This document shows, in pieces, positions 2,252 through 45,299 of a stretch of 64,000 nt of DNA; positions within the stretch are counted from its first letter, which is position 1, and every line of letters starts with the position of its first letter. The notes beneath the pieces are model-generated. The model worked only from the letters and a program-made list of their open reading frames with translations. It was not told the DNA's origin and searched no databases. A program made the position numbers and the translations under genes. The stretch is from assembly GCF_055900595.2 (NCBI RefSeq), contig NZ_CM148325.1. One strand, 5' to 3'.

Positions 2252-2782
2252 ATCGATAATACGCGCGTATAAGTTCACATCATCATAGGCATCATTCAGA
2301 AACTCAGCCTGTTTCAGGCAACCTTCAAGGATAAAACCATTGCGCAAAGCGACCTGGTTGCTTTGCGCATTATCCACCCGACATTTGATCACGAAGCGTC
2401 TAAGTTCACCAGACTGAGCGTAATGATGAATCAATGCCTGCAGCGCCTGAGAAATGATCCCCTGCCCCTGATGAGATTCGTCCAGCCAGTAGCCGATTTC
2501 AGCGGTTTTATTCAGTGGTTCAATACGATTAAACGAGATAACGCCGATAAGTTCATCTTCTTTGAAAATCATGAACATTTTGGCATAGCCGCGTTGATGC
2601 AACATTACATTGCCCTGCACCGTTTTTCGCGTGTCCTCTTCACTTTGAACAAACTGCGGCCAGTTAAGCGACTGTTGTAACCATGTTTTATTTTTACAGA
2701 TTAACTGATGAAGAGGTGTGACGTGACTTTCTGCAACAGCATGTAATTCTAGTGATTCGCTTACTTTTATCGTTTCTGCCAT
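2243..2782 (-). CDS. rimL: Ribosomal protein L7/L12 serine N-acetyltransferase RimL
   Basis: ORF 2243..2797; GNAT-fold sequence, probable start at MAETIKV (2782). Overlaps ydcK 3' end by 9 nt. Confidence 0.85.
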
Positions 2783-2844
2783 CTTATCTCCAGTCAATCC
2801 ATACCACTGTTAAAAAAGCCGCCTGGCTGGCGGCTTAGGAAAGT

Positions 2845-3069
2845 TTACACCTCTTTGACGCTCTCCTGCTGCAGGATTTTGAGCATCTCATCTTTTAACT
2901 GTAGCTTTTGTTTTTTCATGCGGACCACTTCCGCATTGTACCCTCGACCGTCGGAACCTTCCTTTCTGGCAATTTCATGATCAAGTTTATTGTGTTTATC
3001 GAACAAGGACATAAAGCGAGGATTTTCGTTTTTCAGACGGGATATTAAATCTCGGTATTCTGGAAACAT
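2845..3069 (-). CDS. ydcH: Small DUF465 family protein YdcH
   Basis: ORF 2845..3075, 74-76 aa, MFPEYRDLISRLKNENPRFMSLFDKHNKLDHEIARKEG... Confidence 0.8.
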   Translation of the reverse strand: MFPEYRDLISRLKNENPRFMSLFDKHNKLDHEIARKEGSDGRGYNAEVVRMKKQKLQLKDEMLKILQQESVKEV

Positions 3070-3208
3070 ACGCACTCCCTGTTAGTGGCTGACAAGGTGT
3101 ATCTGAAATACACACTATCAGATTACTCATTTAACTTAGGGAAAAATGCGAGCGGGATCGTGTTTAACCAGACGGCACCTCCCGAAGAAGGTGCCGAAGA
3201 AAAAACGA

Positions 3209-4864
3209 TTAACTCATCACGCGGTCGTCAACATACTGACGTTTATCCGGCGCTGGCGGGAAATACTGATACAGCCATGTTTCACTGATAGCGTCGCCCT
3301 GACAACGCAGATACATCCGCATATCGACCGGATCAGTGGAGTCCGAAGTCGGATACCAGTCAAACTGAATACGATAACCATCAATGGGTTCAATATAGAG
3401 AATTTCGATTTGCTTCGCTTCCCCACTGGAAAGCGTAATCACCGGCTCAATGCCTTTTGGTGCGGCAGCTTTCAGATCACCACCAACGAAATCGACGGCA
3501 AAACGACGCGCCCATTTTTCGGGATAGTGTTCACCAGGCGCCCAACCTTCCGGGAAACCGCCCATGCCGGTACGCGTTGCCATAACGCGCGCTAATGGGC
3601 AATGAACAGGCGGTTGCGCACTCCAGTACAGACGATACTGGAATGCAAACTCATCACCCGCTTTTACAGCTTTTTCTGGCTGCCAGAAGCAGACAATGTT
3701 ATCCAGCGTTTCGCCCGTTGTTGGGATTTCCATCAGGCCGATGGTGCCCTTACCCCACTTGTTACGCGGTTCCACCCACAGACTTGGGCGTTTGTTATAC
3801 CAGCCCATAATGTCCTGATAATGAGAGAAATCGCGATCCAGTTGCAATAAACCAAACCCTTTCGGGTTGTTGTCGGTGTAAGCATTGAACTGCAATTTTT
3901 GCGGATTATTCAGCGGACGGCAAATCCACTCGCCGTTGCCCCGCCACATGGACAGACGATCAGAGTCATGGATTTGCGGATGAATGGTGTCGCACATCCG
4001 ACGTTCATTAGTGCCGCAGCTGAACATGCTGGTCATCGGCGCAATGCCCAGCTGTTTAATGTCTTTGCGCGCATACAGGTGATTTTCCACATCCATAATC
4101 ACCTGACTTTTCTCACAATGGATAGTGAACTTATAGGCACCAGTAATGCTGGCGCTATCGAGCAACGCATAAACGGTAAAGGTGGTTGCCCCTGGTTTTA
4201 CCGTATCAAACCAGAAGGCGGTAAAGTCGGGGAACTCTTCTTTGCTGTCGGTGTAAGTGTCGATCGCCAGGCCGCGGGCCGACAAACCGTATTGATATGT
4301 GTCATCAACGGCGCGGAAATAACTCGCGCCGAGGAATGATACGACATCACGGCGCGCCAGTTCGGGGGCTTTAAACACGCGAAAACCGGCAAAACCGAGA
4401 TCGCTTTGCCCTTCTAATTGTTTGGTATCCACACCCGCATCGTTGTATTTGAACAACTCCGGGCGAAAGTGAATTTCACGCGCCAGATGTGTTGCTGGAT
4501 CTACAGAAAACATACGAACGCGGCGACGGAATCCCATTCCCATATGGAAGAACTGAGCGTCCAGTTGACGGTTCTCAACGTTATGCCAGAGCGATTTTTC
4601 GGCGTCGTATTGAATACTGTTATAAGCCTGCGGCGTCATTGTCGCCAGAGTGTCAGGTAACGGACGCGGCGCACCACGCCACGCGGTTTGCGCTAAGTCG
4701 TGCGCCATTGACTGTAGAATGGAGAAGTCAAAACGCTGGGTTTGCCCGTCGGCAATATCAGAATCTGCCGCGAATGCCGCCTGAGAAAAAAGAGAAGCAA
4801 TGCCGCTGGTACCGCACACGGCGGCCATAGCCATTGAACCTTTAATAAATCGTCTACGATCCAT
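3209..4864 (-). CDS. opgD: Glucans biosynthesis protein D (OpgD/MdoD), Tat-exported periplasmic protein
   Basis: 551 aa ORF with twin-arginine signal [32 protein letters not shown] and MdoG/MdoD family body. Confidence 0.92.
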
Positions 4865-5088
4865 ACCTGAAAGTGAGTCCTTCTGGTGTTGTGAATAGTC
4901 CCGCGCTGGTCGTTTTCAGCGGCAAGAAAGTGCTTATTTATGACCGCTCACTCTAGACAATATTTATTAATAATCCAATTGTTGAACTCAGAGAATATGC
5001 ATTAATCGGCAATTTTTTTATGTCGATGGGATGAGCCTGATTCGTTTGTAAAATCAGGCAAATTTTTGCAAAGGCAGATAGTCAAAAT

Positions 5089-6432
5089 TTAAAGCAAACC
5101 ACAGCGGCGTTTACTGCGTTCTTCCGCTTCCTGATAAAGCTGGAACTCATCAAAAACTGGGCATCCCAACGCATGTTCGAAAGCTTCGCGGCTGGCATTA
5201 CCGTGACTGCGTGCCTGCGTTTCATTACCCAGATTTGACTGGAAGATCCCCGCCGCGCTAACAGGCAAAAAATCTTCATAAGTAATGGGTTGTGCCACTA
5301 CCCAACCACGTTCAATTAAGGGTTGTGGATCGTCTCCGGGATGAATCGCCTGACGATGCGCCTCACCTGAAGGCGTCAAACGATATCGGAACCATGCCAA
5401 CCCTTGCTGACGCATTAAAAACTCACTGTCAGGAAAAGTGCGGAAGGTTTCCTGTAAATGCATTTGATGAGTGAGATTATCCTGCCCGGTTCCAGCGTTC
5501 CGCAGAAGATCATCATACATTTGTCGTCCTTTCGGCGTTAATGCCACGCCACGCTGCTCTATTTCACCAAAGCGCGCGGTATGCGTGCCCTGTTTCTGCC
5601 CCGCAAACAACACCTTCTCTTCCAGTGCTTTAAAGCTGGTCTGGCGTAGTAAAATCGGTACCTCGCGGCGCGGCGGCCCTTCGATCAGAATTTTGGGTTC
5701 AATTCCGCATTCAGGCATCATCGACTGCACACGGTCAATATCCAGCGTACGTGGCGTCAGGTGGTTGATATGGCACCCAGGAAAACAGACCACATCAGCA
5801 ATCAGCCGATGTTCGTTGTGCAACGCACGATAGGTTTCTTCATCAACCGTTGCTGACTGGTGCCAGCGAAACGTTTCCAGGGCTTCCTGCACAAACTCCT
5901 GTGCCTGTGTTTCGTTAAAACCGCCCCGCTGCTCATACTCCTCTAACAGTTGTCGACAACGTGGGGTGAAGATATCGCGCTGACGCAGAATCTCCGCCGC
6001 TTTCTGGCGCAAAAATTCGTTCTCGATAAGCTCAAGACGGAGTAATGAGGTAAAAACGCGGAAGGGATTACGCGCCAGAGAAGCATCATCAATGGGCCGA
6101 AATGCTGTGGAATGTACCGGCACGCCCGCCTGCGAGAGATCGTAATAGCTCACCGGGTACATCCCCATAATGGCAAACATCCGCCGAAGAGTAGCAAGCT
6201 CTTGTGCAGTCCCAACGCGAATTGCCCCATGACGTTCAACATTCAGTCGCGCCAGCTCGTCTGCATTTACCATTTTTTCGTGCAGTTGAGGATTGTTTTC
6301 CAGCACAGCCAGATTCACATCAGCTACCAGTTCCAGCAGCGTGCCGTACTGCGGAACTTCTTGCTGGTACATGGCTGACATTGCCTGCGAAAACTGTTCC
6401 CGAATCTCATCCGCCGTGATGCTGTTCGCCAT
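5089..6432 (-). CDS. ydcJ: DUF1338 family putative metalloenzyme YdcJ
   Basis: 447 aa ORF, conserved position between opgD and ydcI. Confidence 0.85.
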   Translation of the reverse strand: MANSITADEIREQFSQAMSAMYQQEVPQYGTLLELVADVNLAVLENNPQLHEKMVNADELARLNVERHGAIRVGTAQELATLRRMFAIMGMYPVSYYDLSQAGVPVHSTAFRPIDDASLARNPFRVFTSLLRLELIENEFLRQKAAEILRQRDIFTPRCRQLLEEYEQRGGFNETQAQEFVQEALETFRWHQSATVDEETYRALHNEHRLIADVVCFPGCHINHLTPRTLDIDRVQSMMPECGIEPKILIEGPPRREVPILLRQTSFKALEEKVLFAGQKQGTHTARFGEIEQRGVALTPKGRQMYDDLLRNAGTGQDNLTHQMHLQETFRTFPDSEFLMRQQGLAWFRYRLTPSGEAHRQAIHPGDDPQPLIERGWVVAQPITYEDFLPVSAAGIFQSNLGNETQARSHGNASREAFEHALGCPVFDEFQLYQEAEERSKRRCGLL

Positions 6433-6648
6433 AATGTCTGCCTCCAGTGGTCAGTAATCTGGAGTGTAGGTAACCGCATTCACTCTGGCGGGAAGAATTT
6501 GCAAACTGTGATCTCGCCGCGAAAACATCAATATTATCCATTTCGCTGTAACACAATTGCTTTATTTGTTAATAATATTTTGCAACTAAGTTATCATAAT
6601 CAAACAACTTCACTTGTCAGCGACACTGCTTCGTTTTTAACATCGCTT

Positions 6649-12040: not shown

Positions 12041-13480
12041 TTACGACTGTAAATAAACCACCTGGGTCTGCAGGTATTCATGCAAGCCATGTTTGCCATC
12101 TGCGCCGCCAATACCGGATTTACGCCATCCGGCGTGGAATCCTTGCATAGCTTCGAAGTTTTCACGGTTGATGTAAGTTTCACCAAACTTCAGCCCTTTA
12201 ATAGCTTTCATCGCGACGTTCAGATTTTGGGTATAGAGTGATGAGGTCAGGCCGTAATCACTGTCATTAGCCATTGCGATAGCCTCTTCCAGCGTGTCAA
12301 ATGCGACCACTGGCAGCACCGGGCCAAAGGTTTCCTCGTGCATGATCGACATTTCCTGACGAACATCCAGTAGCAATGTCGGCGGATAATAATATCCTTT
12401 CCCCTCTACTGCCTTGCCCCCCAACGCCACTCTCGCCCCCTCTTCGACTGCGCGCGCCACTTTTTGCTCGACCCTTTCCAGCGCCGCGGCGTTAATCAAC
12501 GGCCCCATCGCAATGTCGTTGCGTTCAGCGGGGTTACCAAATTGAACCGCCTGCATCGCTTCACCCAGCCGATTGACGAAATGATCATAAATGCCTTTCT
12601 GTACATAAACACGTTCTGCACAGTTACACACTTGCCCACTATTAATGACGCGTGAATCAACGATGGCTTTGACTGCCAGTTCAAGATCGGCATCGTCCAT
12701 TACGATAGCTGGTGCTTTACCACCCAATTCCAGACACACTTTTGTGATATTTTTTGCTGCAGTCGCCATGATCTTTTCACCTGCAGAGACGCTGCCTGTC
12801 ATACTGACCATTGCGACCTTTGGGTTACCCGCCAGTTCTTGCCCAACAGTTTCACCACGCCCCAGCACAAGGTTAAACACACCGCGTGGAAGGCCTATTT
12901 CATCGACAATTTTGGCAAAAGCAATCGCATTGTTTGGCGTAAATTCACTGGGTTTAATGACGATGGTATTACCGGTCAAAAGAGCGGGAGCCATTTTGCG
13001 GGCAATGAGGAAGAACGGGAAGTTCCACGGCAGAATGCCGGTAGTCACGCCAAGCGCACGTTTAAAGAGAAGAATATTTTCTCCTGGACGATCGCTTTGA
13101 ATAATCTCGCCTTCATAACGCCGTGCCCACTCCGCCATGTAATCGATATAGTCCGCAGTAAAAGCCACTTCGACTTCAGCCAGCTGCTGGATCTTGCCCC
13201 CTTCTTCAACAATCAGCGCACTGATTTCACCGGCGCGTTCGCGGATCCCGGCGGAGATTTTGCACAACCAACTGGCGCGTTCAATGGCAGGCAATGCTTC
13301 CCATTCTGGCTGCGCGCGCTCTGCGGCGTCGATTGCTTTGCGAGCATCTTCAGCCTGACCATCGGGAATGCGGGAAATCACCGCCTCTGTTGCGGGGTTA
13401 ACCACATAAATCCATGCGTCTCCACGCCAGGTAACAAACTGTCCATCGATATACATAGGATGTTGAACGGGTACTGACAT
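12041..13480 (-). CDS. aldA: Lactaldehyde dehydrogenase AldA
   Basis: 479 aa aldehyde dehydrogenase family with catalytic Cys/Glu motifs (GQVCNCAERVYVQ, ELGGKAP). Confidence 0.93.
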   Translation of the reverse strand: MSVPVQHPMYIDGQFVTWRGDAWIYVVNPATEAVISRIPDGQAEDARKAIDAAERAQPEWEALPAIERASWLCKISAGIRERAGEISALIVEEGGKIQQLAEVEVAFTADYIDYMAEWARRYEGEIIQSDRPGENILLFKRALGVTTGILPWNFPFFLIARKMAPALLTGNTIVIKPSEFTPNNAIAFAKIVDEIGLPRGVFNLVLGRGETVGQELAGNPKVAMVSMTGSVSAGEKIMATAAKNITKVCLELGGKAPAIVMDDADLELAVKAIVDSRVINSGQVCNCAERVYVQKGIYDHFVNRLGEAMQAVQFGNPAERNDIAMGPLINAAALERVEQKVARAVEEGARVALGGKAVEGKGYYYPPTLLLDVRQEMSIMHEETFGPVLPVVAFDTLEEAIAMANDSDYGLTSSLYTQNLNVAMKAIKGLKFGETYINRENFEAMQGFHAGWRKSGIGGADGKHGLHEYLQTQVVYLQS

Positions 13481-13673
13481 GGGAGACTCCTGTGATTAAT
13501 GTGTGTATTTGGTAAATTATTTGTTAATTAATATCAATCATCATAGAGACAGCATCTTGAAAGGACAAATCTGTGAAGAGCTTCATAAAAAGAAGGGTAA
13601 AAGGAATAAAAGGCAGAAAAAAAAGTAAGGAGTCATGCCCGTTTGCAAACAGTTGTTCTCAAACGGGCAATTT

Positions 13674-14474
13674 TCAACGTAGCGAACGACTTTCCATCGC
13701 CTCGATGAGCACCGCATCGTGTTTCAGCGTTTGCCATGCCTGGATGACTTCTGCCGGAAAATCAACGTGAACGATAAAATCTCGCCCGCGTGGACCGTAG
13801 CCATCGCTATCATCGCGTAAACGTGGCAGCTCGCCAGTGAGTAGTGAGAGATAACGCTCAACCGCCCATAATCCTTCTAACTGGTTAATAAAGATTACAC
13901 TGTCTTCGTTATTTCCCAACTGAGGAACGAATCCGGGATAACTTAACCAACGAGGTGCGTCTGGATTGTCACCGGTAATACGACGGAACGTCGCCATTGT
14001 GCGCCGCTGCATGGTGGGGTCCTGAACAACGATAGCCGTATGAACTCTTTCTACGGCCTGATTCAATAGCGCGATGCTAAAGCGTGCGTTTTCACCGCAG
14101 TTTGTTGACTGGTCTTCAATCCAGATTTTTTCATGCGGAATGTGCCAGAACTGATGAGCGATATCCGCCAGGATGGTAGCTTCTGCTCTGCCAGTGGTGC
14201 GGATAGTGTTGTAGTGCGGATGCTGTGCGATGGCGCTATACAAAAAAGTTGTCGAGTGACCGATACCACCACTAATCAGTAGAGGAATTTGCTGATCGCG
14301 GGCAATCTTACATGCCGCATCGATAGTCGGCATAACCGCATTGCCTGCAAGGATCACGCAATCGGCCTGATACGGCACCTCACCGGAGAAATCATCCTGC
14401 GCCAGCCACTGACCGATAACATTTATGGCATCTATGGTTGCCGGCGAAAGCGTCGGAAACGGGGTAATGTTCAT
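13674..14474 (-). CDS. ydcF: DUF218 (YdcF) family protein, SAM-binding
   Basis: 266 aa ORF matching YdcF family, conserved neighbour of aldA. Confidence 0.88.
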
Positions 14475-14863
14475 GGTTCCTCCTTATCGTTCCCTTAAGA
14501 ATACTGCGTGAGATAATAATGAGAAGCGGAGCACTCTGAAAGGAAGATGATGCTTTTTCTATCGCGCCATCGCGAACCAGACACTGGTTTTAGTCATACT
14601 GTATTTGCGGAGAAACTGTTGATAAAACATCAATAACATAATGTTGTATCATTTTTAAATGATAGATAATCTGGTGTGATATTTATATAATATTCATTCT
14701 TATATTTCTCAATCAAGGGGAACATTTGCAACACGCTCATTAGTGGTAATTCCTTAAATTTTAATTGAATAATATCTGCTCTCAGCTATAAACTACTATC
14801 TGTCTATGGTGCCGAATTACCATTTTTATTCATCAACACAATGCTATATGTCGAGAAACATAC

Positions 14864-15358
14864 ATGGAAAAAATATTTCAACTTTTAGAAACCGCCTGGC
14901 CTGCCGTAAAAGCAACAGGACTTACAGGTTGCGTAACCGCTCCAGAAACTGAAGATAACCTTCTTTTATTTGAGGATAAATACGCGACACATATTCCAAA
15001 AGACTATCGGCAGTTATTATCTCATTTTGGCGCATGTCATTTTGCCGATCCTCAAATTTATACTTTGAATGATCTGGACAGATATTACCCTCTATTTTTT
15101 CAACAATGGGAAGAGTATAAAAAAGAATATCCATCATTGAACAACATTGATCCTTTTCCTGTTGGCAGTTTTGGCGACGGGAGTGTCGCTTTTCTTGACC
15201 GCAACAGCCTAAAAATTTATATTCTAATTCATGATTTTGGTATATTTACCGATGATGTTGGTGATTTCCCTTGTGAGTTATGCTTTGAAAATTTTGGTGA
15301 GTTAGTGGAAATGCAAGTTGAAATGATTCTTTATTTACAGCAATATCATGTATCATGA
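14864..15358 (+). CDS. SUKH / SMI1-KNR4 family protein (candidate orphan immunity protein of a polymorphic-toxin system)
   Basis: 164 aa; motifs IPKDYRQLLSHFGA and PFPVGSFGDGSVAFLDRNSLKIYILIHDFG resemble the SMI1/KNR4 fold; lies in an AT-rich insert between ydcF and hrpA. Confidence 0.55.
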   Translation: MEKIFQLLETAWPAVKATGLTGCVTAPETEDNLLLFEDKYATHIPKDYRQLLSHFGACHFADPQIYTLNDLDRYYPLFFQQWEEYKKEYPSLNNIDPFPVGSFGDGSVAFLDRNSLKIYILIHDFGIFTDDVGDFPCELCFENFGELVEMQVEMILYLQQYHVS

Positions 15359-15395
15359 ATAATAAAATTATCACTCATGTTCTTACTGAAAAAAA

Positions 15396-15656
15396 GTGAA
15401 TTCTATAGCAGAGAAATATTGTAAAATGTATAATCTTAATAGCTCGTTAGCATACCAAATCACGGCTATTAAATTTCTTCCTGATGGTATGAAATCATTC
15501 GGCCTTGATGTTCCATTATGGATGGTCGTCAGAGATGTTAACGGTTGGGATGATATGGAAATTACGATTTTTATTTGTGACAAAAATAGTGAAGTTCTTT
15601 GTTGCAGTAATATTTGGTATCCAGTATATCGTCCTCATCAAGCAGATTTGTTATAA
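15396..15656 (+). CDS. Hypothetical small protein (86 codons, GTG start) in AT-rich insert
   Basis: ORF-track frame MNSIAEKYCKMYNLNSSLAYQITAIKFLPDGMKSF...; no recognisable family; codon usage atypical; could be a second immunity-type gene or non-coding. Confidence 0.3.
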   Translation: MNSIAEKYCKMYNLNSSLAYQITAIKFLPDGMKSFGLDVPLWMVVRDVNGWDDMEITIFICDKNSEVLCCSNIWYPVYRPHQADLL

Positions 15657-15701
15657 GCACGTAAGGAGTACCGCCCTTGCTATTTTTCAGAATTCATAAA
15701 G

Positions 15702-15734
15702 AAAAAACCCGGCGCTAAATGCTTACCGGGTTTT
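15702..15734. terminator. Bidirectional intrinsic terminator downstream of hrpA (and of the insert ORFs)
   Basis: AAAAAACCCGG-cgctaaatgcttac-CCGGGTTTT, A-tract / hairpin / T-tract. Confidence 0.65.
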
Positions 15735-15758
15735 AGATTTATCAGGCAAATAGCAGCG

Positions 15759-18700
15759 TTAACCGCTAATCTGCTCCATCGCCTGCAAAATACGCTTATC
15801 TGAAATCGGATAAGGCGTACCAAGTTGTTGAGCGAAGTAACTAACGCGCAGTTCTTCTATCATCCAACGGATCTCTTTCACATCCTCATCCTCACGACGT
15901 GCGGGCGGCAGTTTGTTGATCCATTGCTGCCACGCCTGCTGGACGTTTTCAACTTTCAGCATCTGAGCACGGTCACGGTGCGGGTCAACCGCCAGTTTTT
16001 CCAGACGCTTTTCAATCGCCTGCAAATAACGCAGCGTGTCGCCCAGCCGTTTGAAGCCATTACCAGTGACAAAACCGCGATACACCAGCCCACCCATCTG
16101 CGCTTTAATGTCAGAAAGCCCCAGCGCCATGGTCATATCCACCCGTCCTTTCAGGCGTTTGTTGATATTGAACACTGCCGTAAGGATTTGCTCGACCTGC
16201 TTCGCAATATCCACCACCGTGTCGTTCAGTTCAGCGCGGACTTTTTCATGAAGCGCAGCAAAGCCTTCTTCCGTCCAGACCGGGCCGCCCGCCTCATCAA
16301 TCAATTTATCAACACCGCAGGAGATGCAGTCGTCAATGAGATCCAGCACTTTACCGTACGGGTTAAAGTAGAGACCCAGCTTCGCTTTGTTCGGCAGTTT
16401 CTCATGCAGATATTTAATTGGCGACGGAATGTTCAGCAACAGCAAGCGACGCAAACCACGCCACATAGCCTGCTGTTGTTCCTGCGGGTTATCAAAAAGC
16501 TTAATCGCTACGCTGTCACGCTCATCCACCAGCGCAGGCCAGGCCTTCACTTTGTAGTTGCCACGTTTCTGCTCGTAGTGATCCGGTAAATTACCGAAGC
16601 TCCAGATATGTAACCCGCTTTGCTCAATACCATCATCGGCAACGGCGGAAAGCGTTTCCTGCACTTTGCCTTTCAGGGCGTCTTTCAGATCCTGTAATGA
16701 GCGCCCTTCTTTTAGCTTCTTATTTTTGTCGTCCACCACGCGGAAGGTGATTTTCAGGTGATCGGGCACCTGCTCCCAGTGCCAGTCTTCGCGGTCAACG
16801 GTAACGCCGGTCATCCGCCGTAGCTCGCGCTCAAGGCTGTCGAGCAACGGCAGTTCCAGCGGCGTGACGCGACCTAAAAACGCTTCGGCGTAGTTTGGCG
16901 CGGGCACAAAATTACGCCGTACCGGTTTCGGCAACGATTTGATTAGAGCAATCACCAGTTCACGGCGCAGGCCGGGGATCTGCCATTCAAACCCGCTTTC
17001 CTCAACCTGGTTAAGTAACGGCAGCGGAATATGCACGGTCACACCGTCAGCATCCGCCCCCGGCTCAAACTGATAGCTTAAACGCAGCTTGAGATTACCC
17101 TGATGCCAAAAGTTCGGGTAATCCAGCTTGCTGATTTTTTCCGCCCCTTCTTTGATCAACATGCTCTTTTCAAAGTTGAGCAAATCAGGCGTTTCGCGGC
17201 TGACTTTTTTCCACCAACTATCAAAGTGACGTGCAGAGATCACATCATGGCTGATGCGCTGGTCGTAAAACTCAAACAACGTTTCGTCATCCACCAGAAT
17301 ATCGCGGCGACGTGATTTGTGTTCCAGTTCTTCCACTTCTGCCCGTAGTTTCAGGTTTTCACGGAAGAATGCGTGACGCGTCTGCCAGTCACCTTCCACC
17401 AGCGCGTGGCGAATAAAAAGTTCACGACACAGCGCAGGATCAATCTGGCTGTAGTTGACCTTACGCGCAGCAACAATCGGCAACCCGTAAACGGTGACTT
17501 TTTCAGTTGCCATCACCGCGCCCTGCGCCCGTTCCCAGTGCGGTTCGCTGTAGGAGCGTTTAATCAAATGCTGGGCAACTGGCTCTACCCATTCCGGATC
17601 GATACGTGCCGCAATGCGCCCCCACAGGCGGCTGGTTTCTACCAGTTCCGCCACCATTGCCCATTTCGGCGGCTTCTTGAATAAACCAGAACCGGGGAAG
17701 ATGGAGAAACGCGCGTTACGTGCGCCGGTATATTCCTGTTTATCGGCATCTTTCATGCCGATATGCGAAAGCAAACCTGTCAGTAAGGCGATGTGAATTT
17801 CGCGATACTCCGCCGGTTCGCTGTTAACCGGAATGCCAAGTTCTTTCACCACCTGGCGCAACTGGGTGTAGATATCCTGCCATTCGCGCACGCGCAGATA
17901 GTTAAGGTAATCGGTACGGCACAGGCGACGGAAGGCGTTTGAAGAGAGCGCCTTTTGCTGCTCGCCGAGATAATTCCACAGATTTACAAACGCCAGGAAG
18001 TCGGATTCTTTATCGTGAAAGCGACGATGTTTTTCGTCCGATGCCTGCTGCTTGTCCATTGGCCGCTCACGCGGGTCCTGAATAGAGAGCGCGGAAGTGA
18101 TAATCATCGCCTCACGCACGCAGCCATGTTTCTGCGCTTCCAGCACCATTCGCGCCAGACGAGGATCGACTGGCAGTTGCGAGAGCTGGCGACCGAGCGG
18201 CGTCAGTTTATAGGCGCTGGCCTGTTCATCAGTGGTGATCGCGCCCAGCTCTTCGAGCAGACGCACGCCATCCTGGATATTGCGTTTATCCGGCGCTTCT
18301 ACAAACGGGAACGCAGCGATATCGCCCAGCCCCAGCGCGGTCATCTGCAAAATAACCGAGGCCAGGTTGGTACGCAGAATCTCCGGATCGGTAAATTCCG
18401 GGCGCGAGAGGAAATCGTCTTCGGAATAAAGACGAATGCAGATCCCTTCTGACACACGACCACAGCGGCCTTTACGCTGATTAGCTGAAGCCTGCGAAAT
18501 GGGCTCAATCGGCAGACGCTGCACTTTGGTGCGATAGCTGTAGCGGCTGATACGCGCCGTACCTGGGTCGATAACGTATTTAATCCCCGGCACAGTCAGC
18601 GAGGTTTCCGCGACGTTAGTCGCCAGCACAATGCGCCGTCCGCTGTGCGACTGGAAGACGCGGTTCTGCTCGCTGTTCGAAAGCCGTGCATAAAGCGGAA

Positions 18701-19661
18701 GAATTTCCGTATGGCGTAAGTTCAGCTTGTTCAGCGCATCGGCGGTATCGCGAATTTCTCGCTCGCCGCTCATAAAAATCAGAATGTCGCCAGGGCTTTC
18801 CTGGCTCAGTTCGTCTACGGCATCGAAAATCGCCTGCAACTGGTCGCGCTCGGTGTCATCAGCTTCTTCAACAATCGGGCGATAGCGCACCTCCACCGGA
18901 TAGGTACGACCGGAGACTTCGATAATCGGCGCATTATTAAAGTGGCGCGAAAAGCGTTCCGGGTCGATAGTCGCGGAAGTGATAATGATTTTTAGGTCAG
19001 GACGCCGCGGCAGCAACTCTTTCAAATAACCGAGGAGAAAATCGATATTCAGGCTGCGTTCGTGCGCTTCGTCAATAATGATGGTGTCGTACTGCATCAG
19101 CAGGCGGTCTTGCTGGATCTCCGCCAGCAGGATACCGTCGGTCATCAGCTTGACCATCGTGTTATCACTTACGTGATCGCTGAAACGCACTTTATACCCG
19201 ATGCAACCGCCCGGCTCCGTTTTCAGCTCTTCCGCAATACGGTTCGCCACCGTTCGTGCCGCCAGACGACGCGGCTGGGTGTGGCCGATCAGCCCTTTAA
19301 TCCCGCGGCCCAGTTCCATACAGATTTTCGGTAACTGAGTCGTTTTACCGGAACCCGTTTCCCCGGCGACGATCACCACCTGGTGATCACGGATTGCTTC
19401 GAGAATGTCCTGCTTTTTCTGACTAACCGGCAAATTGTCCGGATAAGTGATTTCCGGTCGTGCTGCTTCACGCAGCAGGACTTTCCCTGCCGCCTGGTCA
19501 ATCTCTTTCGCCATCTCCTGGAAAATGGCCTGTTGTGCATCAGGATTTTTAACCTTCTTCACGCCGTGCAGACGGCGGGAAAAACGCAGTCTGTCACGCA
19601 GCATCAGCGAATCCAACCGTTGCTGCAAGGCCGTAAAGGTCAATTTTTGTTGTTCTGTCAT
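15759..19661 (-). CDS. hrpA: ATP-dependent RNA helicase HrpA (DEAH-box)
   Basis: 1300 aa; Walker A GETGSGKTTQ, DEAH box, HA2/OB domains. Confidence 0.95.
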   Translation of the reverse strand: MTEQQKLTFTALQQRLDSLMLRDRLRFSRRLHGVKKVKNPDAQQAIFQEMAKEIDQAAGKVLLREAARPEITYPDNLPVSQKKQDILEAIRDHQVVIVAGETGSGKTTQLPKICMELGRGIKGLIGHTQPRRLAARTVANRIAEELKTEPGGCIGYKVRFSDHVSDNTMVKLMTDGILLAEIQQDRLLMQYDTIIIDEAHERSLNIDFLLGYLKELLPRRPDLKIIITSATIDPERFSRHFNNAPIIEVSGRTYPVEVRYRPIVEEADDTERDQLQAIFDAVDELSQESPGDILIFMSGEREIRDTADALNKLNLRHTEILPLYARLSNSEQNRVFQSHSGRRIVLATNVAETSLTVPGIKYVIDPGTARISRYSYRTKVQRLPIEPISQASANQRKGRCGRVSEGICIRLYSEDDFLSRPEFTDPEILRTNLASVILQMTALGLGDIAAFPFVEAPDKRNIQDGVRLLEELGAITTDEQASAYKLTPLGRQLSQLPVDPRLARMVLEAQKHGCVREAMIITSALSIQDPRERPMDKQQASDEKHRRFHDKESDFLAFVNLWNYLGEQQKALSSNAFRRLCRTDYLNYLRVREWQDIYTQLRQVVKELGIPVNSEPAEYREIHIALLTGLLSHIGMKDADKQEYTGARNARFSIFPGSGLFKKPPKWAMVAELVETSRLWGRIAARIDPEWVEPVAQHLIKRSYSEPHWERAQGAVMATEKVTVYGLPIVAARKVNYSQIDPALCRELFIRHALVEGDWQTRHAFFRENLKLRAEVEELEHKSRRRDILVDDETLFEFYDQRISHDVISARHFDSWWKKVSRETPDLLNFEKSMLIKEGAEKISKLDYPNFWHQGNLKLRLSYQFEPGADADGVTVHIPLPLLNQVEESGFEWQIPGLRRELVIALIKSLPKPVRRNFVPAPNYAEAFLGRVTPLELPLLDSLERELRRMTGVTVDREDWHWEQVPDHLKITFRVVDDKNKKLKEGRSLQDLKDALKGKVQETLSAVADDGIEQSGLHIWSFGNLPDHYEQKRGNYKVKAWPALVDERDSVAIKLFDNPQEQQQAMWRGLRRLLLLNIPSPIKYLHEKLPNKAKLGLYFNPYGKVLDLIDDCISCGVDKLIDEAGGPVWTEEGFAALHEKVRAELNDTVVDIAKQVEQILTAVFNINKRLKGRVDMTMALGLSDIKAQMGGLVYRGFVTGNGFKRLGDTLRYLQAIEKRLEKLAVDPHRDRAQMLKVENVQQAWQQWINKLPPARREDEDVKEIRWMIEELRVSYFAQQLGTPYPISDKRILQAMEQISG

Positions 19662-28709: not shown

Positions 28710-31700
28710 TTAGAACGTTTTCTTGAAGTTCAGCATCACGCCTTTATCGCTGATACCATCCTCTTTCCAGTGGTAAGCATCCAGATTCAGCGAACTTTCT
28801 TTGCTGCTGTACTTCACGCCGACGCTTGCCAGACTGTTGATGCCGCCGCCCTTTTGCCCATCATCGACATTAAAGTGCTGGCTGCCTGCGCCTGCCAGGC
28901 TTGCCGTGCGCTGGCTCTTGCTGTAGCTGAGGTTCGGCCCACCTTCCAGCGCGGCGTTCGCACTCCAGCCGTCTTTGCCTGCGTAGTCCAGCTTCAGCCC
29001 AACGATGCTGTCCACCGCCGTTTCGCTGCCGCTGTTCATGCTCAGGTTAAAGTCTCCGGCATTGCGCTCCTGATAGTCGCCTTCCAGCATGTGACGCAGT
29101 TTCAGACCCGCATATGGCGTGATTTTCAGCCCTTCGCGCGGTTCAAAGGTTTTCGCCCCTTCGCTACGGAACTCCAGGTACTGTTGTTTCACATTCGTGT
29201 CTGCCGTCTTACTGATGTCGCCGTAAGCCACCGAACGGCTGCTGTCCAGTTGGTGAATATCGTAACGCAGCGCGTTATTCCAGCTCATACCGTTGTCAAA
29301 GGACATCTGATGCTTCAGGCCAAAGAACTGGCTGTAGCCGCCTGTAACACCATTATCACCCGCTTTCTGCGCACCGTCGCCGTCCAGACGGGCGATACCG
29401 TACTCCAGGCTCATGGTCTGGTTTTCGCTCAGGTCGAGGGTTTTACGCAGCGCCAGCATGTCGTACTCGGTATTGTTACCCAGCTCAGCACGCGGATCGC
29501 CTTTCGCCACCACGTTAAATGCCAGAGCGTTGCCCATCTTCGGTGCGGCGTCTGCCAGCATACTAAAGCGATTGCTTAACACACGCGCTTCGCGGAATAC
29601 CGTGGTCGCCTGGCTACCGCTAATTTGCTTAAGTGCGCTGTTCAGCTCTGCAGTGGTGCCGACGTTCAGACTGGTATACAGCTCATTGTTGGTGTAACCC
29701 GCATCCAGCGCTTTTGCCACGTCATTCACTGAGGCATCCGTCGCCACATCGGTGTAGGCTTTTTTGCTCATGGTCACGTCAACGTTGCCGCTGGCGTCGG
29801 TACTGCCTGTCGCCTGCCAGACAACAGATGTCGAAGTGATCGCTTGCGCATCGGTCAGGTTGCTGCCTTGCACCACATCATCAAAGCTGGCGGTTTTGTC
29901 CGCCGTTCCCGCCGCAAAAGCAGTGTTGATCTCCACGCCTTTCATACTGGCGTTATTGACCATCAGCTTACCAGCGCTACCATCGGCGTTCGTCCCCACC
30001 ACGTAACCATTGAGGTTGTTCATGCCATCGTTGCGGCTAACGGAAGAAGAATGACTGTCGTCGTATGGCGTAATGGTGGGTTCTTCCGGCGCGGTAAAGT
30101 CGACATAGTGTACTTCCGTACCGTCTCCCCCTTCACCACTGCCCTCCATCACCGTGCCAGATTGTTTAATTAATCCGGAACCATTCACGCTGTCGTCAAT
30201 ATAAACAGTGCCGTTGTTAACAATATGACCATTGCTCCCGAGCTTGCTGAAGGCATATGAATTGCTGGCATATATATTGATGGTGCCGTTATTCTCAATC
30301 ACCGCATCAGCCGTGGCATCGGACTCCAGTTGCATCCCTATCATGCCTGTCCTGCTGGTTCCTTGCGTGCCAACGTTTATGGTGCCGTTGTTGATCATTT
30401 TGGCTTTACCGTGCGCCGACATCGCCACATTACTATTTTTGTCGATATTAATAATGCCGTCGTTTATTGCCTTGCTGGCCGTGTTTGATGTCAGGATCTG
30501 CCCGTTGATGACGCCAGACTGGCCATTATAGAACGTATGCCCATCACCACCGGTGCTAATTCTCATGTCACCTTCAACTGTCCCCCAGTTATTAAAATGT
30601 CCTGTCCACAGCGCATTCGTCGCCACCGTTGCCACACCGCCTTCCAGATTGTTGAAGGTGCCACCTTTATCAACCGATGCGTTATGTACGGTACCAGCAT
30701 TATTGAAGGTAGAGGCTGCAGCAAAAGTTATTTTCTCTACTTTTCCACCGGCCTGATTATTCATTACGGCAGACCCGGAAGAACATTTCCAGGCATTCAC
30801 CGTTCCGGTGTTATAAAAACGGCTGGCCCACTGGTCAACCGTGTTGATGCTGCCTGAGTTGTGAATAATCGATCCTGCAACAGTCGTTCCGACTTGCCCG
30901 GTCACCATACCTTCGTTAGTGAACACTCCGCCATCCACAGAAACAGTTTTTGTCGTGCCGTGGTTGGTGTATTCCCCACCCGTTGCGATATCAACCTCAT
31001 TAATACTGCCCGTGGTTTCATTGACCAGATGACCAAAGTCAGCCACGGTGACAGGTCCCCCGGTGACCGTACCCGTGTTTGTTACCAGGGTTTCGGCGGT
31101 TGCCGTGATATCAGTAGTACCGCCATATGAAGACAGGTTAAGCGTTTCCCCGTCAGCCGTAATAATGTCACCATTTCTCCAGCTTAATGAAACAAACCCA
31201 TCAGTCGAGTTATAGGCGTTATTGTCCTGGCAAATACCAAAAGTACAGATGGTCCCGTAATTAACAATAGTCCCGCTGCCATCGTTATAGAACGCCTGCC
31301 CGTTTTCAGCATTAATATTGATGATGCCCGTCTGATCATTAATCGCAGTGGCACCATTGTAAACAGCCATGCCGACCAATTTATTTGGCCCCAGCGTATC
31401 ATCATCATTTTCATTTACTTCCAGATTTATAGTTCCCTGGTTAATAATAATGTTACCTGGCTTCATCGCAGCCATACCGGCACCGGAATTATAGAGTGTT
31501 ATTTCACCACCCTGCTGATTAATGGCGGTAGAATTAACGCTGGCACCAGAACTGTCTGTACCCACAGCCATCCCGACAGCATAATCTTTGGCGCTGTCAT
31601 GAGCGATATTGGACGCCAGACTGGAAGTATCGTTTTCATCAACCCATAATGCGTCAATGAAAATCTTACCCATATTGTCAATGGTTGAATTATTGGAGGC

Positions 31701-34202
31701 CAGCATGCCAACACTCCCCCGGCCGTACATTTGGATCTCACCGGCAGTATTATTTAAAGCGGTGCCATTGTTGCCTGCCGTCATCCCCGTCAGACTAATG
31801 ACTTGATTATTAAAAATTAAAGGGTCACTCAAACCTTGAGCGTTCAGACTATTGAAAATACGTCCCTGCGCGAGTACCTTACTGGTGATGGCACTGTTAT
31901 TAACAACTCGACCACCATAGACGCTCAAATACGCAGAACTAGCAGAGTCTGATGTATTCCCCTCTACGCCGTAGATAGAAATCGTTACGTTGTTATTATT
32001 TACAGCTAGCGACTCTTCACCAGTAGCCCTGGCAAAGCCAATATTACCCAGTTCTACATCACCATTATTTATCATCTGCGAACCGGAATTCACCAGTACA
32101 ACCTGTGATGTGTCACTATTATAATGATCAAATGTATTTATATCTTTTAGGATAAAAGTGGCGTTGCGGCCAAGTTCTAAATGGGCTCGGTTATTCAGTT
32201 GAATGATATCGCCTAATCCAAGCGGAAAAACACCACTGATTGTTGAATCCCCATTTAGATACAGAGTAGAGTGCCCATCGATTTTGATAACAGGCGTATC
32301 GCCATAACCATTACGTTTTAAAGCAGGTGTGGAGCCATCCTGTAGAGTATTTTCTTCGCCAGCTAAATGGATACCACCATTAATTTCGACGGTATTACCG
32401 TCACCCGACACAACCAGACCATTAATATTTTCCTGGCTGCCATCCATTTCATTATAGCTACGAGAAGTGACTTCACTGTCAGCAACAATGGTAAGATTGC
32501 CATTTAATACGATATTATTGTCGTGTCCCTGCACCTGAATGCCAACAGAAGGGGTAAAAAAGTCATTTATTGAATGCTCTCCGGCCTGATTTTTATCCAC
32601 CAGAATATTACCGGTAATTTCAACTTCATTGCCATCACCGGCTACATTTACCCCTGTCGCAACACTGCCAGTCACATTAAGCTCATTTGTCGCCAGCGTC
32701 ATGGCGTTATTATTTCCAGACACATCCAGACCGGTTGAATAATCCCCTACATCCACACGGCCAGCCAGAGAAATCAGACCATCATCTCCAACGACGCGAA
32801 TCCCGGTACTGAAATTATTAGCAATGATGTCCCCCACATTGATAAGAGTAGAATGATTACCCTCAATCAGAATCCCTGTCGCATTGGCCTCTGAACTACC
32901 ATTACTGACGGAAATATCCCCCCTGTTAATGAACGTCGACGCATCACCACTGAGAGAAACACCCAGCGAATTTTCATCCACGACCGTTATATTGCCTTTA
33001 TTGCTGACGATCGCGCCATTACCCTCAACATCAATACCCCGTGCAGCATTGCTAACGTATAAATCCCCTTCCTGTATAACCGTCGCATTATTACCAACGA
33101 TTTTGCTGCCCGTTGAATTTTGCCCATCAACCGTCATATGTCCTTTATTATCGGTCCTGACATCATTACCGCTAATAACGGCCCCTATTCCGCCGTTATT
33201 GACAGTGGAGTCGCCAGTGTTATTTAAGATTGTACGATCGCCATTGACGATAACCGCCGTGCCAGCATCGACCACCGTCTGACCGTTATTATTGATGGTT
33301 ATATTATCGCCGGTCAGGATACCGACCACCGAATCTTCACCGACAGCCTCTGTTTTACCCTCGTTTGTCAGCGCAATGTTGTTACCATTAATCATCATCA
33401 CCGTGCCGCCATTCAGGGCCGTGTTACCGCCCTGGTCAGTGATAATCGCATCATTAACGGTAATTATTCTGCCCGTTGTTCCATCAGACACGACACTGGC
33501 TAACTGTGTGACGTGGAGTTTACCTTCGTCATCGTAGCGCCATTCCATATCACCTGTGGTACTCACACCACTAAAGATGGCGGTATGAGTCTCTTCATGG
33601 TTTTCCCACTCTGTCACAATGGTTTTTCGGCCATCTTTTGCCGACAGCGTGTAGCTACCATCGACATTCTGTATATAGGTGAACGTTGCCCCGCGAATCT
33701 TCAGGGTTTGCGCGTCCTTGTCCCATGTCACATTGTTATCAAAGACAACGGGTTCTGTTCTCGGTAGGTCAACATCATCACCGCTATTGTCGGGTGGAAT
33801 AACATTACCGCCGTTATCTGGCTTTACAGGTATACCTGAATCTTCATCACTGGGAACGGGTAGCGGTAGAGGGCCATTATCATCTGGCGGTATGGGCTGG
33901 GGAAAAGAAGAGTGAGCAGAATGATCATTGTCATGAGACAATTCAATCACTGCGAGTGTTGCCAGTACCGCCGTGGCACCTAATGCCAGTAACGAGCTGA
34001 AACCATTATTTGTAACAACAGCACATTTTTCTGGCACTGTTTTCAACTTCGTTGACGGTCGGGCGTGCCCTTCTGACTGACATGTCATTTGAGAGCTTCT
34101 GCGCATACTGTCTGCACTCTCGCCTTCTGTTATTTCCGCCCCCCAGCTTTGGCCACTTAACGCTATAGCGATACACGCTGATAATAACGTTTTCTTTTGC
34201 AT
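28710..34202 (-). CDS. ydbA: YdbA autotransporter (type Va) with long beta-helical repetitive passenger and C-terminal beta-barrel, uninterrupted
   Basis: 1830 aa single ORF; signal peptide; Pro-rich linker; many degenerate ~20-aa Gly/Asn/Thr/Val-rich repeats (NNGTINV...-type); C-terminal barrel ending ...MLNFKKTF. Confidence 0.88.
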   Translation of the reverse strand: MQKKTLLSACIAIALSGQSWGAEITEGESADSMRRSSQMTCQSEGHARPSTKLKTVPEKCAVVTNNGFSSLLALGATAVLATLAVIELSHDNDHSAHSSFPQPIPPDDNGPLPLPVPSDEDSGIPVKPDNGGNVIPPDNSGDDVDLPRTEPVVFDNNVTWDKDAQTLKIRGATFTYIQNVDGSYTLSAKDGRKTIVTEWENHEETHTAIFSGVSTTGDMEWRYDDEGKLHVTQLASVVSDGTTGRIITVNDAIITDQGGNTALNGGTVMMINGNNIALTNEGKTEAVGEDSVVGILTGDNITINNNGQTVVDAGTAVIVNGDRTILNNTGDSTVNNGGIGAVISGNDVRTDNKGHMTVDGQNSTGSKIVGNNATVIQEGDLYVSNAARGIDVEGNGAIVSNKGNITVVDENSLGVSLSGDASTFINRGDISVSNGSSEANATGILIEGNHSTLINVGDIIANNFSTGIRVVGDDGLISLAGRVDVGDYSTGLDVSGNNNAMTLATNELNVTGSVATGVNVAGDGNEVEITGNILVDKNQAGEHSINDFFTPSVGIQVQGHDNNIVLNGNLTIVADSEVTSRSYNEMDGSQENINGLVVSGDGNTVEINGGIHLAGEENTLQDGSTPALKRNGYGDTPVIKIDGHSTLYLNGDSTISGVFPLGLGDIIQLNNRAHLELGRNATFILKDINTFDHYNSDTSQVVLVNSGSQMINNGDVELGNIGFARATGEESLAVNNNNVTISIYGVEGNTSDSASSAYLSVYGGRVVNNSAITSKVLAQGRIFNSLNAQGLSDPLIFNNQVISLTGMTAGNNGTALNNTAGEIQMYGRGSVGMLASNNSTIDNMGKIFIDALWVDENDTSSLASNIAHDSAKDYAVGMAVGTDSSGASVNSTAINQQGGEITLYNSGAGMAAMKPGNIIINQGTINLEVNENDDDTLGPNKLVGMAVYNGATAINDQTGIININAENGQAFYNDGSGTIVNYGTICTFGICQDNNAYNSTDGFVSLSWRNGDIITADGETLNLSSYGGTTDITATAETLVTNTGTVTGGPVTVADFGHLVNETTGSINEVDIATGGEYTNHGTTKTVSVDGGVFTNEGMVTGQVGTTVAGSIIHNSGSINTVDQWASRFYNTGTVNAWKCSSGSAVMNNQAGGKVEKITFAAASTFNNAGTVHNASVDKGGTFNNLEGGVATVATNALWTGHFNNWGTVEGDMRISTGGDGHTFYNGQSGVINGQILTSNTASKAINDGIINIDKNSNVAMSAHGKAKMINNGTINVGTQGTSRTGMIGMQLESDATADAVIENNGTINIYASNSYAFSKLGSNGHIVNNGTVYIDDSVNGSGLIKQSGTVMEGSGEGGDGTEVHYVDFTAPEEPTITPYDDSHSSSVSRNDGMNNLNGYVVGTNADGSAGKLMVNNASMKGVEINTAFAAGTADKTASFDDVVQGSNLTDAQAITSTSVVWQATGSTDASGNVDVTMSKKAYTDVATDASVNDVAKALDAGYTNNELYTSLNVGTTAELNSALKQISGSQATTVFREARVLSNRFSMLADAAPKMGNALAFNVVAKGDPRAELGNNTEYDMLALRKTLDLSENQTMSLEYGIARLDGDGAQKAGDNGVTGGYSQFFGLKHQMSFDNGMSWNNALRYDIHQLDSSRSVAYGDISKTADTNVKQQYLEFRSEGAKTFEPREGLKITPYAGLKLRHMLEGDYQERNAGDFNLSMNSGSETAVDSIVGLKLDYAGKDGWSANAALEGGPNLSYSKSQRTASLAGAGSQHFNVDDGQKGGGINSLASVGVKYSSKESSLNLDAYHWKEDGISDKGVMLNFKKTF

Positions 34203-34848
34203 GAGAAATCCTTTTCAATGAATGACATTTCAAATAATAAAATATGAGTAATAGATAAGAAATAGCCACAGGCTGTGTCATGATTTAATGTCTGCTCTTG
34301 AAATTTTATTTAGCAATCCCAGAACATTCAACTTAATTAGTATTTCGAAACCTCAATGTAGACACATAAAAAACAAATTATTCGATTACTTAGGCTATTT
34401 GTTGCATTATTACACATCCTCTAACAATAATCAGACAAAAAGCAATGTCAGCGTCAAATTGGGTAGCTGATTCATATTACTGACCACTCCGGAAATTCAT
34501 TCATCGTGAAAATATTAACATTTCAACCATGTTCCATTTAATCAACCCACTGAAAATCTGGAGGTTATCTACTGCGGTTTGTTGTTGACTGCCCCTGACA
34601 GGTTTACCAGGCGTTGACAGAAGATGAGGCTTGCAAGATGCTAAAAACAATGTGGTGTTACAAGCAATCCCATAAACCTCGTAACTTCACTGAAATGAGC
34701 GATGCCGTCCATATTTGGGTTGACTATAAAAACCCTTAATATTGAGGTTGATGATGATATTCATGATGGCATTGGAAAAATAGGACACCCATAAAATATC
34801 TATACAGCCTTTAAATTAAATCATTGAAATATCGCTGTTGCATAGTGC

Positions 34849-35172
34849 TTATTTTTGCAACCATTTCCCGTTAATTCCCTGCACATATTCCCCCGGTTTG
34901 GCCCGAGCTACAAGCTTTTGCCCGGCGAGTTTCGCGATATCATCTACCGAGACATTATTTTGCTTTGCCAGTTGTTGGTAACTCACTTTACGTGCGGCAT
35001 TAATCTCGGTTACTAATTTCTCTGTTTCAGCATCCGTTTTCAACGCAACCAAATAACCGTTAAATGTTTCACCTACCCGCCCCTGGGTTCTGGCCTCGTC
35101 CAGTGTTAATGCCACTACATTGCTGCTTACCAGTCCAACAAGAAACGCACAAAGAAGTAATGTTTTCTTCAT
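34849..35172 (-). CDS. ydbL: YdbL (DUF1318) periplasmic protein
   Basis: ORF 34849..35253; canonical start MKKTLLLCAFLVGLVSSNVVA (signal peptide) at 35172. Confidence 0.88.
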   Translation of the reverse strand: MKKTLLLCAFLVGLVSSNVVALTLDEARTQGRVGETFNGYLVALKTDAETEKLVTEINAARKVSYQQLAKQNNVSVDDIAKLAGQKLVARAKPGEYVQGINGKWLQK

Positions 35173-35179
35173 CATCCCC

Positions 35180-39198: not shown

Positions 39199-39205
39199 TC
39201 TTGCC

Positions 39206-45291: not shown

Positions 45292-45299
45292 ATCCTCCT

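Follow-up and report, generated by a model that had tools for sequence, protein, structure and literature searches.

An AT-rich SUKH gene cassette at a site of cargo replacement between ydcF and hrpA in Escherichia coli

The ydcF-hrpA interval and its SUKH gene

The stretch of Escherichia coli DNA analysed here (the window, 64 kb in full) carries ydcF at 13674-14474 and hrpA at 15759-19661, both on the minus strand, with 1284 bp between them. The corresponding gap in K-12 MG1655 is 271 bp, and both figures agree with a preliminary description of this DNA, which had reported an AT-rich separation of about 1.28 kb and put the K-12 gap at a few hundred base pairs. The GC content is 0.35 over the ydcF-hrpA gap, 0.338 in the gap core and 0.36 in the SUKH ORF described below, compared with 0.511 for ydcF, 0.536 for hrpA (that is, 35% against flanks of 51-54%) and 0.487 for the whole window; local values along the gap lie between 0.29 and 0.39 and rise to about 0.5 on either side. 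The SUKH cassette is therefore AT-rich and foreign in composition. Synteny with K-12 extends from tehA to ydbA, beyond which the window carries YdbH, LdhA, PFOR, an OmpN-like porin, TtcA, DbpA and similar genes. Identity to K-12 is 89.5-94% around the site, against a typical 96-98%.

The interval is a composite of four segments. The first, 14475-14544, is ydcF-proximal intergenic DNA which a four-allele alignment shows to be common to all alleles of the site, including the 'empty' allele of K-12. The second, 14545-14749 on the minus strand, consists of degraded remnants of the kind of cargo that O157:H7 carries at this position, as judged from tblastn, from DNA held in common with the O157 and DUF2262 alleles, and from a pseudogene call by PGAP. 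The third, 14750-15658 on the plus strand, is cargo specific to the SUKH allele; its length of about 909 bp is set by the breakpoints against the DUF2262 and O157 alleles, and it comprises a short upstream region and two genes. The SUKH gene (SMI1/KNR4, SUKH-1 type) occupies 14864-15358 on the plus strand and encodes 164 amino acids. Gene 2 follows on the same strand in two pieces, a 5' stub at 15355-15399 that reads MNNKIITHVLTEKK before its stop codon, defined by alignment with strain 118UI and by translation of the intact gene, and an ORF of 86 codons with a GTG start at 15396-15656 that corresponds to residues 15-99 of the intact 99-residue protein. The stop codon of gene 2 lies 2 nt ahead of the fourth segment, the right flank (15659-15758), whose sequence is common to the cargo-bearing alleles. 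This flank contains a terminator-like hairpin with a T-run, found by a terminator scan (15661-15680, plus strand), and a hairpin downstream of hrpA, the hrpA terminator hairpin, found by an inverted-repeat search (15696-15742). A weak, putative sigma-70 promoter was read by eye upstream of the SUKH gene (TTGAAT-16-TATAAA, 14765-14792, plus strand), and a second putative promoter-like site within the remnant region (14663-14691) came from a consensus scan, in which sites were no more numerous in the cassette than in shuffled sequence. A search of the cassette against Rfam returned nothing above noise.

The 164-residue protein had been described as SUKH-like on the strength of short motifs. Those motifs are present, and profile and structural comparisons agree with the assignment. 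Residues 26-130 match Pfam SUKH_6 (E 4e-7), SMI1_KNR4 (E 1.4e-5) and SUKH_5 (E 1.1e-4), and a profile of the family matches YobK (PDB 2PRV) by sequence with an E-value of 0.0019; in NCBIfam there was no match for either cassette protein. An AlphaFold (AF2) model built from an alignment of 13 sequences, 12 of them homologues, has a pLDDT of 86.8 and a pTM of 0.82, compared with a pLDDT of only 45 for a single-sequence model. It contains helices at residues 30-40, 46-54, 68-94 and 144-160, a short strand at residues ~57-65 and then four strands at 97-141. In a Foldseek comparison with the PDB the best 19 matches are all SUKH proteins (among them Knr4, BF1740, YobK, Listeria 2ICG and FBXO3), with Syd at rank 20; the best is yeast Knr4 (E 2e-4, TM 0.56-0.61), and structural matches to SUKH proteins span TM 0.48-0.61 at 12-16% sequence identity to the solved structures. 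The SUKH superfamily is defined by a core of four helices and a split beta-sheet (PMC3113570), and the order of secondary structure elements in the predicted structure agrees with that core. Judged by Pfam profile and predicted fold, the protein is a member of the SUKH superfamily. It is a cytoplasmic, single-domain protein of SUKH-1 type, with no signal peptide evident by inspection. The sequence LTGC at residues 20-23 was considered as a possible lipoprotein motif and this was rejected, as the model places a charged, confidently modelled helix there and the cysteine is unconserved in relatives.

Alleles of the site, older cargo and age of the cassette

A megablast survey of 5426 complete E. 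coli genomes matched the 1284-bp region, through its flanks, in 5418. The SUKH cassette, queried with the core 14735-15655, is present in 185 genomes (3.4%), eight of which carry it at ≥99% identity to the window and 177 at ~93.6%, and each carrier has one chromosomal copy, always at ydcF-hrpA. Other genomes have other cargo at the same place: 587 of the 5426 carry a cargo of four genes for hypothetical proteins, as in O157:H7, in two sub-haplotypes, and five carry a DUF2262 gene. The remainder, about 86%, have a gap of ~270 bp, a count obtained by subtraction and with which all sampled rows agree. Both flanks are common to all cargo-bearing alleles in the four-allele alignment. Thus the ydcF-hrpA site is a multi-allelic hotspot of cargo replacement, with at least four alleles and no recombinase. 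We found no description of the hrpA-ydcF site as a hotspot in the literature. The preliminary description had named two outcomes that would speak against it, the lack of a profile match to SMI1/KNR4 or any immunity family and the presence of the same sequence at this site in essentially all E. coli; the profile match is there, and the cassette is confined to a small minority of genomes.

The history of the SUKH allele is partly legible in the segment beside ydcF. When the proteins of the O157 cargo were compared by tblastn with 14400-15800 of the window, remnants of the first O157-type gene were recovered as a C-terminus (14593-14667) and an N-terminus (14651-14698), together with the C-terminus of the second (14714-14749), all on the minus strand, with E-values of 3e-7, 1e-3 and 1e-2; PGAP places a partial pseudogene at 14590-14667, inside this remnant region. 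Because minus-strand remnants of O157-type genes are kept at 14593-14749, the SUKH allele arose by cargo replacement, and it appears to go back to an O157-type allele whose cargo was deleted and replaced. The idea that the cassette is an acquired insert is therefore sustained in so far as it is variable between strains and foreign in composition, while the O157-type remnants mean that it is not a simple insertion into a K-12-like gap.

No machinery for mobility accompanies the cassette. Integrase and IS genes are absent from the annotation of the identical RefSeq locus, and there are no border repeats around the cassette. Searches with tblastn found no copy in 50,697 phage records and no true plasmid copy, the sole 'plasmid' match being a mislabelled 4.9-Mb chromosome. 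Comparison of carriers points instead to ordinary recombination. Strains 118UI, CE0007a and ESC818 are identical over 17 kb, whereas strains 135 and KK19-02 equal 118UI from the gap through the 3' half of hrpA and differ from it by 2-3% farther out, so that the cassette lies in a recombination tract some 7-8 kb long. Similarly, the SUKH gene of strain N3 is 99.4% identical to that of 118UI within flanks that are only 96-97% identical. In the window the 3' half of hrpA is itself a rare allele, found at ≥99% identity in nine genomes and at 95-99% in ten, with ~91-92% in 5398. These alignments show that the cassette has been exchanged among lineages by homologous recombination inside flanking core tracts, without a mobile element.

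There are three SUKH haplotypes, 4-7% apart, which is about the same divergence as that of the flanking core genes. Between the window and 118UI, dS is 0.09 for the SUKH gene, 0.16 for ydcF and 0.34 for hrpA, and by this comparison the cassette is at least as old as the divergence of the DNA on either side. Taken together, the cassette is foreign in composition and old within Escherichia. Recent transfer from a low-GC donor was considered and rejected, there being no relative above 46% amino-acid identity. The horizontal acquisition that had been proposed is accordingly not recent, given haplotypes so far apart and no donor above that level.

Gene 2 and the relatives of the SUKH protein

In strain 118UI and others of the common haplotype, gene 2 encodes 99 amino acids and is translationally coupled to the SUKH gene, its ATG overlapping the SUKH stop codon (ATGA). 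The window has lost one C relative to 118UI (GAAAACAAAG to GAAAAAAAG), giving a run of seven A at 15389-15395, and this 1-bp deletion splits gene 2 into a stub of 14 codons and a remainder of 86. The 86-codon ORF that had been noted in the interval does exist, then, but it is what the frameshift has left of a 99-aa gene. Two diverged haplotypes keep gene 2 unbroken, with 99 aa in 118UI and 100 aa in N3. Its dN/dS is 0.22-0.32 in comparisons with or between intact haplotypes and 0.49 between the frameshifted window copy and N3. Since it is intact in two diverged haplotypes, with a dN/dS of 0.32 between them, gene 2 is probably a real gene. Homologues of the 99-aa protein were found in E. coli only. 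It has no match in Pfam, NCBIfam, PADLOC, PHROGs or the PDB sequences, none to the SUKH profile (hhalign), and none by phmmer to any ORF at the loci of the relatives or in the window. A programmed -1 frameshift of the dnaX type was also considered for the window copy. The heptamer A_AAA_AAG at 15390-15396 is in frame with the 5' stub, and slipping by -1 at this point would lead into the frame of gene 2; the window contains 32 copies of this heptamer, an SD-like sequence is missing upstream of the copy at 15390-15396, and the 74 nt downstream of it fold no better than shuffled sequence (z 0.39). The stimulatory elements are thus absent and the candidate was rejected.

The state of the two genes bears on whether the cassette does anything at all. 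It could be a functionless, decaying relic of a toxin-immunity or accessory module, neutral, silenced and linked to the core genes. The frameshift of gene 2 in the window haplotype would fit such a relic, as would the relaxed constraint on the SUKH gene (dN/dS of 0.30-0.39 between haplotypes against 0.02-0.05 in the flanks), the dead remnants of earlier cargo in the same intergenic region, the rarity of the cassette and a promoter scan at chance level. Purifying selection on the SUKH gene is weak and marginally significant (binomial p ~0.06). However, the SUKH ORF is unbroken in all three haplotypes despite their 4-7% nucleotide divergence, gene 2 is intact in two of them with a dN/dS well below 1, and the cassette has evidently moved across lineages within recombination tracts. 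By dN/dS both genes look functional, and we consider it unlikely that the cassette is a mere relic.

Relatives of the SUKH protein were sought more widely. A word-indexed homologue search returned only the E. coli copies. When 1.84 billion representatives were searched exhaustively with HMMER, only 29 reached E≤1e-3. The motif FP[IV]G[GS][FLV]G[DE]GS, based on an alignment of six sequences, was looked for in 100,044 species, each represented by a single genome, and was found at 43 loci, a sample that is biased because the scan used a single motif. These loci are nearly all from Firmicutes (Paenibacillus, oral Lachnospiraceae, Veillonella, Mogibacterium and Atopobium) and include none from Enterobacteria. 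The relatives share 34-46% identity with the E. coli SUKH protein, or 34-41% when measured in our own alignment, and so, at these values, no donor can be named.

The nearest relatives mostly stand alone among housekeeping genes and are syntenic across many species of Paenibacillus and Lachnoanaerobaculum. The Paenibacillus relatives occupy a constant position in about a dozen species, flanked on one side by a beta-eliminating lyase gene and on the other by a LysR gene, a context that looks more like that of a housekeeping or regulatory gene than that of a polymorphic immunity gene. A Pfam survey of same-strand ORFs at 28 of the 43 loci (66 upstream and 47 downstream) found mainly methyltransferases, M24 peptidases and HAD hydrolases upstream, with regulators also among the neighbours; the downstream genes include a few of the Imm12 and Imm68 families and some of defence type (Schlafen/AlbA_2, AbiEii, Eco57I). 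Among the matches listed for the same-strand neighbours at these 28 loci there is no recognised polymorphic-toxin domain. A minority of relatives lie in poly-immunity arrays, as P0005 does beside Imm68, SMI1_KNR4 and DUF4303 genes, and another (P0031) adjoins an Imm10-like gene. No effector-paired homologue of the SUKH protein was found in the contexts inspected.

These contexts raise the possibility that, rather than conferring immunity, the SUKH protein binds or regulates an endogenous partner, in the manner of Syd with SecY or of yeast Knr4/Smi1, and that the partner might be the product of gene 2. In its sharpest form this would be a two-component module resembling a toxin-antitoxin pair, in which the SUKH protein restrains the small protein. 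The ATGA overlap, the joint presence of both genes in all three haplotypes and the constraint on gene 2 (dN/dS 0.32) favour a partnership, and losing gene 2 first while SUKH stays intact is what one would expect of a pair in which gene 2 is neutralised by SUKH. The stand-alone, syntenic relatives in housekeeping neighbourhoods of Paenibacillus and Lachnoanaerobaculum point in the same direction, and non-immunity members do exist in the superfamily (PMC3113570). On the other hand, homologues of gene 2 are confined to E. coli and it is missing beside every relative, so that a partnership between the two is unconserved; it is unlike any toxin family; and a cell-intrinsic role is hard to square with presence in 3.4% of genomes. 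We therefore regard an endogenous partner as a somewhat unlikely explanation. A more elaborate proposal, that SUKH and the 99-aa gene form an undescribed self-contained module, with the neutraliser or regulator encoded first, which is one of several interchangeable cargos of the hotspot and is turned over purely by homologous recombination, seems improbable to us. Were it true, the window haplotype would be the module minus its effector half.

The defence-type genes downstream of a few relatives also recall another class of cargo. The site resembles known hotspots of accessory genes in holding alternative, unrelated cargos, and the cassette could on that basis serve in defence against phages, or in counter-defence if it came from a phage, within a defence hotspot. 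Yet PADLOC matches none of the cargo proteins of the site, PHROGs gives only a weak match (E 0.012), and the cassette is absent from the phage records searched. We know of no defence system that relies on an isolated SUKH domain, and regard this explanation as very improbable, the least likely of those weighed here.

Proposed orphan immunity and comparison with known systems

The function that is best supported for the SUKH protein is that of an orphan immunity protein, a reading we favour tentatively and with slightly less than even confidence. It is drawn from membership of the SUKH superfamily, from a precedent in Bacteroidales, where single SUKH domains acting as orphan immunity factors have experimental support (PMC12247911), and from the strain-variable, accessory status of the gene. 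More generally, SUKH proteins are predicted to be immunity proteins, and in Bacteroidales this has been shown. Immunity-family arrays around some of the relatives make such a role plausible here by analogy. YobK, one of the structural matches, confers immunity to the B. subtilis toxin YobL.

In this strain a rare cargo of ~0.9 kb with two translationally coupled genes sits in a recombinase-free replacement hotspot. According to the immunity proposal, when a competitor injects an effector of CDI, Rhs or T6SS type, the SUKH protein would bind its toxin domain and would block that domain in the cytoplasm, thereby protecting a cell that does not itself make the toxin. Because it is AT-rich, the cassette is probably weakly expressed or silenced by H-NS under laboratory conditions.

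Several observations count against orphan immunity. No polymorphic-toxin, Rhs, CDI or T6SS gene or toxin fragment is recognisable in the 64-kb window, in keeping with what had been noted for the neighbourhood of the gene, and upstream of SUKH there is no toxin gene, the 390 bp there holding only remnants of unrelated hypothetical genes. The lack of a recognisable toxin beside the relatives inspected, the conserved context in Paenibacillus, the weak selection on SUKH and the frameshift in gene 2 weigh on the same side. Of the original proposal of an orphan immunity gene, then, the superfamily assignment holds; the immunity role itself is inferred from superfamily membership, and no cognate toxin was found here or beside any relative inspected.

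If orphan immunity is correct, the cassette would be a small, portable determinant of E. coli survival under contact-dependent attack in the gut, present in about 3% of strains and exchanged via ordinary recombination. The identical RefSeq protein (WP_032302975.1) is already automatically annotated by PGAP as an 'SMI1/KNR4 family protein', and the gene is of an ordinary accessory kind; as RefSeq already names the family and no partner toxin can be named, the finding is a modest and incremental one. The present analysis contributes the structure of the hotspot with its census of alleles, the fossil of a previous cargo, the frameshifted partner gene and the absence of a toxin link in the subfamily. 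The locus offers a compact case in which a single intergenic site has changed its cargo repeatedly without mobile-element machinery, and in which older cargo is still readable.

Among known systems the protein most resembles the immunity-type SUKH-1 proteins (PF09346 / SUKH_6 PF14568) such as YobK (2PRV) and BF1740 (3D5P), with which it shares a single domain of ~150-160 aa, the Pfam matches, cytoplasmic location, the predicted core of four helices and a split beta-sheet, and the region of the conserved F/YP.G..GDG motif. The gene for YobK comes immediately after that of its LXG toxin, whereas the window cassette is without a toxin, either adjacent or elsewhere in the window. The orphan cdiA-CT/cdiI and rhs-CT/rhsI modules of E. 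coli, reportedly described by Poole et al. in PLoS Genet in 2011, offer a second parallel, in that an immunity-type gene without a full-length toxin is found in E. coli in DNA that is AT-rich relative to the core genome. Those modules lie downstream of cdi or rhs loci, retain toxin C-terminal fragments and remain homologous to the main gene; the window has neither such a locus nor a toxin fragment, and the only fragments upstream of SUKH are from unrelated hypothetical genes of another cargo. The genes of the acquired interbacterial defence (rAID) systems of Bacteroidales, among them orphan SUKH immunity genes, form long arrays beside a tyrosine recombinase and are 30-62% homologous to cognate immunity genes located beside known T6SS effectors (PMC12247911). 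In contrast, the cassette has no recombinase, lies outside arrays, and no effector-linked cognate homologue of it was found. As a locus, the site is most like the recombination-driven core-gene hotspots of E. coli, sharing with them alternative unrelated cargos between common flanks, no mobility genes, transfer in flanking core tracts and raised divergence of the flanking genes; it differs from other such hotspots in that its cargos are very small, ranging from one to four genes.

Divergent flank and alternative cargos at the ydcF-hrpA site

The 3' half of hrpA adjoining the ydcF-hrpA site (window 15759-17700) is a rare and deeply divergent allele. Among 5426 complete E. coli genomes, only 9 carry this segment at an identity of at least 99% and 10 at 95-99%, with 5398 matching it at approximately 91-92%, and comparison of the window hrpA with that of strain 118UI, which carries the common haplotype of the SUKH cassette, gave a dS of 0.34. 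Identity between the window and K-12, typically 96-98%, falls to 89.5-94% around the site (broadly, positions 13000-19000). Taken together, the rarity of the allele, its dS value and the dip in K-12 identity suggest either that the segment was imported from a divergent lineage of Escherichia or that haplotypes have been long maintained on the flank of a cargo hotspot.

The commonest cargo of this site, found in 587 genomes, is a set of four small minus-strand genes for hypothetical proteins (for example at 4116-5804 of locus L003 from O157:H7 RIMD 0509939, and at 2416-3826 of locus L013 from strain 144). One of the four matches Pfam DUF7021, and a PADLOC search with all four returned no match. 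The fourth gene is now a pseudogene in a sub-haplotype of this cargo with approximately 91% identity. A third cargo, present in 5 genomes, is a single minus-strand gene for a 285-aa DUF2262 protein (strain MFDS1022581, locus L002, 3414-4271; Pfam E 2e-44); no mention of DUF2262 was found in the literature searched.

Insertion sequences were also observed in cassette-carrying strains. Strain 100117, which shares the cassette haplotype of the window, has an IS1A copy between the cassette and hrpA (L065, 9065-9762), and both this strain and KK19-02 carry IS150 between trg and hokB (L065 and L064, about 1434-2806).

The break in the second cassette gene

Gene 2, the second gene of the cassette (plus strand), is broken by a 1-bp deletion (window 15389-15399). 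The deletion created the heptamer A_AAA_AAG at 15390-15396, which is in frame with the 5' stub and has directly 3' of it a TGA stop that overlaps a GTG. If ribosomes slipped by -1 here, or reinitiated at the GTG, the gene 2 product would be restored, or nearly so. However, because structure downstream of the heptamer gave no support for frameshifting (z 0.39) and A_AAA_AAG occurs 32 times in the window, its presence at the break is probably coincidental.

The ydbA region compared with K-12

The window encodes an intact 1830-aa ydbA homologue, a BigA-like autotransporter (28710-34202), whereas K-12 ydbA is interrupted by IS2 and IS30; where alignable, the two share only 66-84% identity. Directly after it follow ydbH, ldhA, the PFOR gene (ydbK) and an OmpN-like porin gene (33000-46000). 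No segment matching the K-12 paaB-paaY stretch taken for comparison was found across the whole window, and the adjoining fea genes, judged by position, appear to be missing. The porin gene and ttcA lie only about 750 bp apart, so the Rac prophage is absent as well.

Relatives of the SUKH protein in Paenibacillus

Outside E. coli, the closest relatives of the cassette SUKH protein are found in Paenibacillus species (loci L014-L025 and L028-L030, match at about 6001-6450). Approximately 12 species keep the order LysR, beta-eliminating lyase, SUKH, LysR and aldo-keto reductase, and in at least one of them the lyase stop codon and the SUKH start overlap. For an immunity-type gene such a conserved context is unusual; it hints that in this genus the SUKH gene has a housekeeping role.
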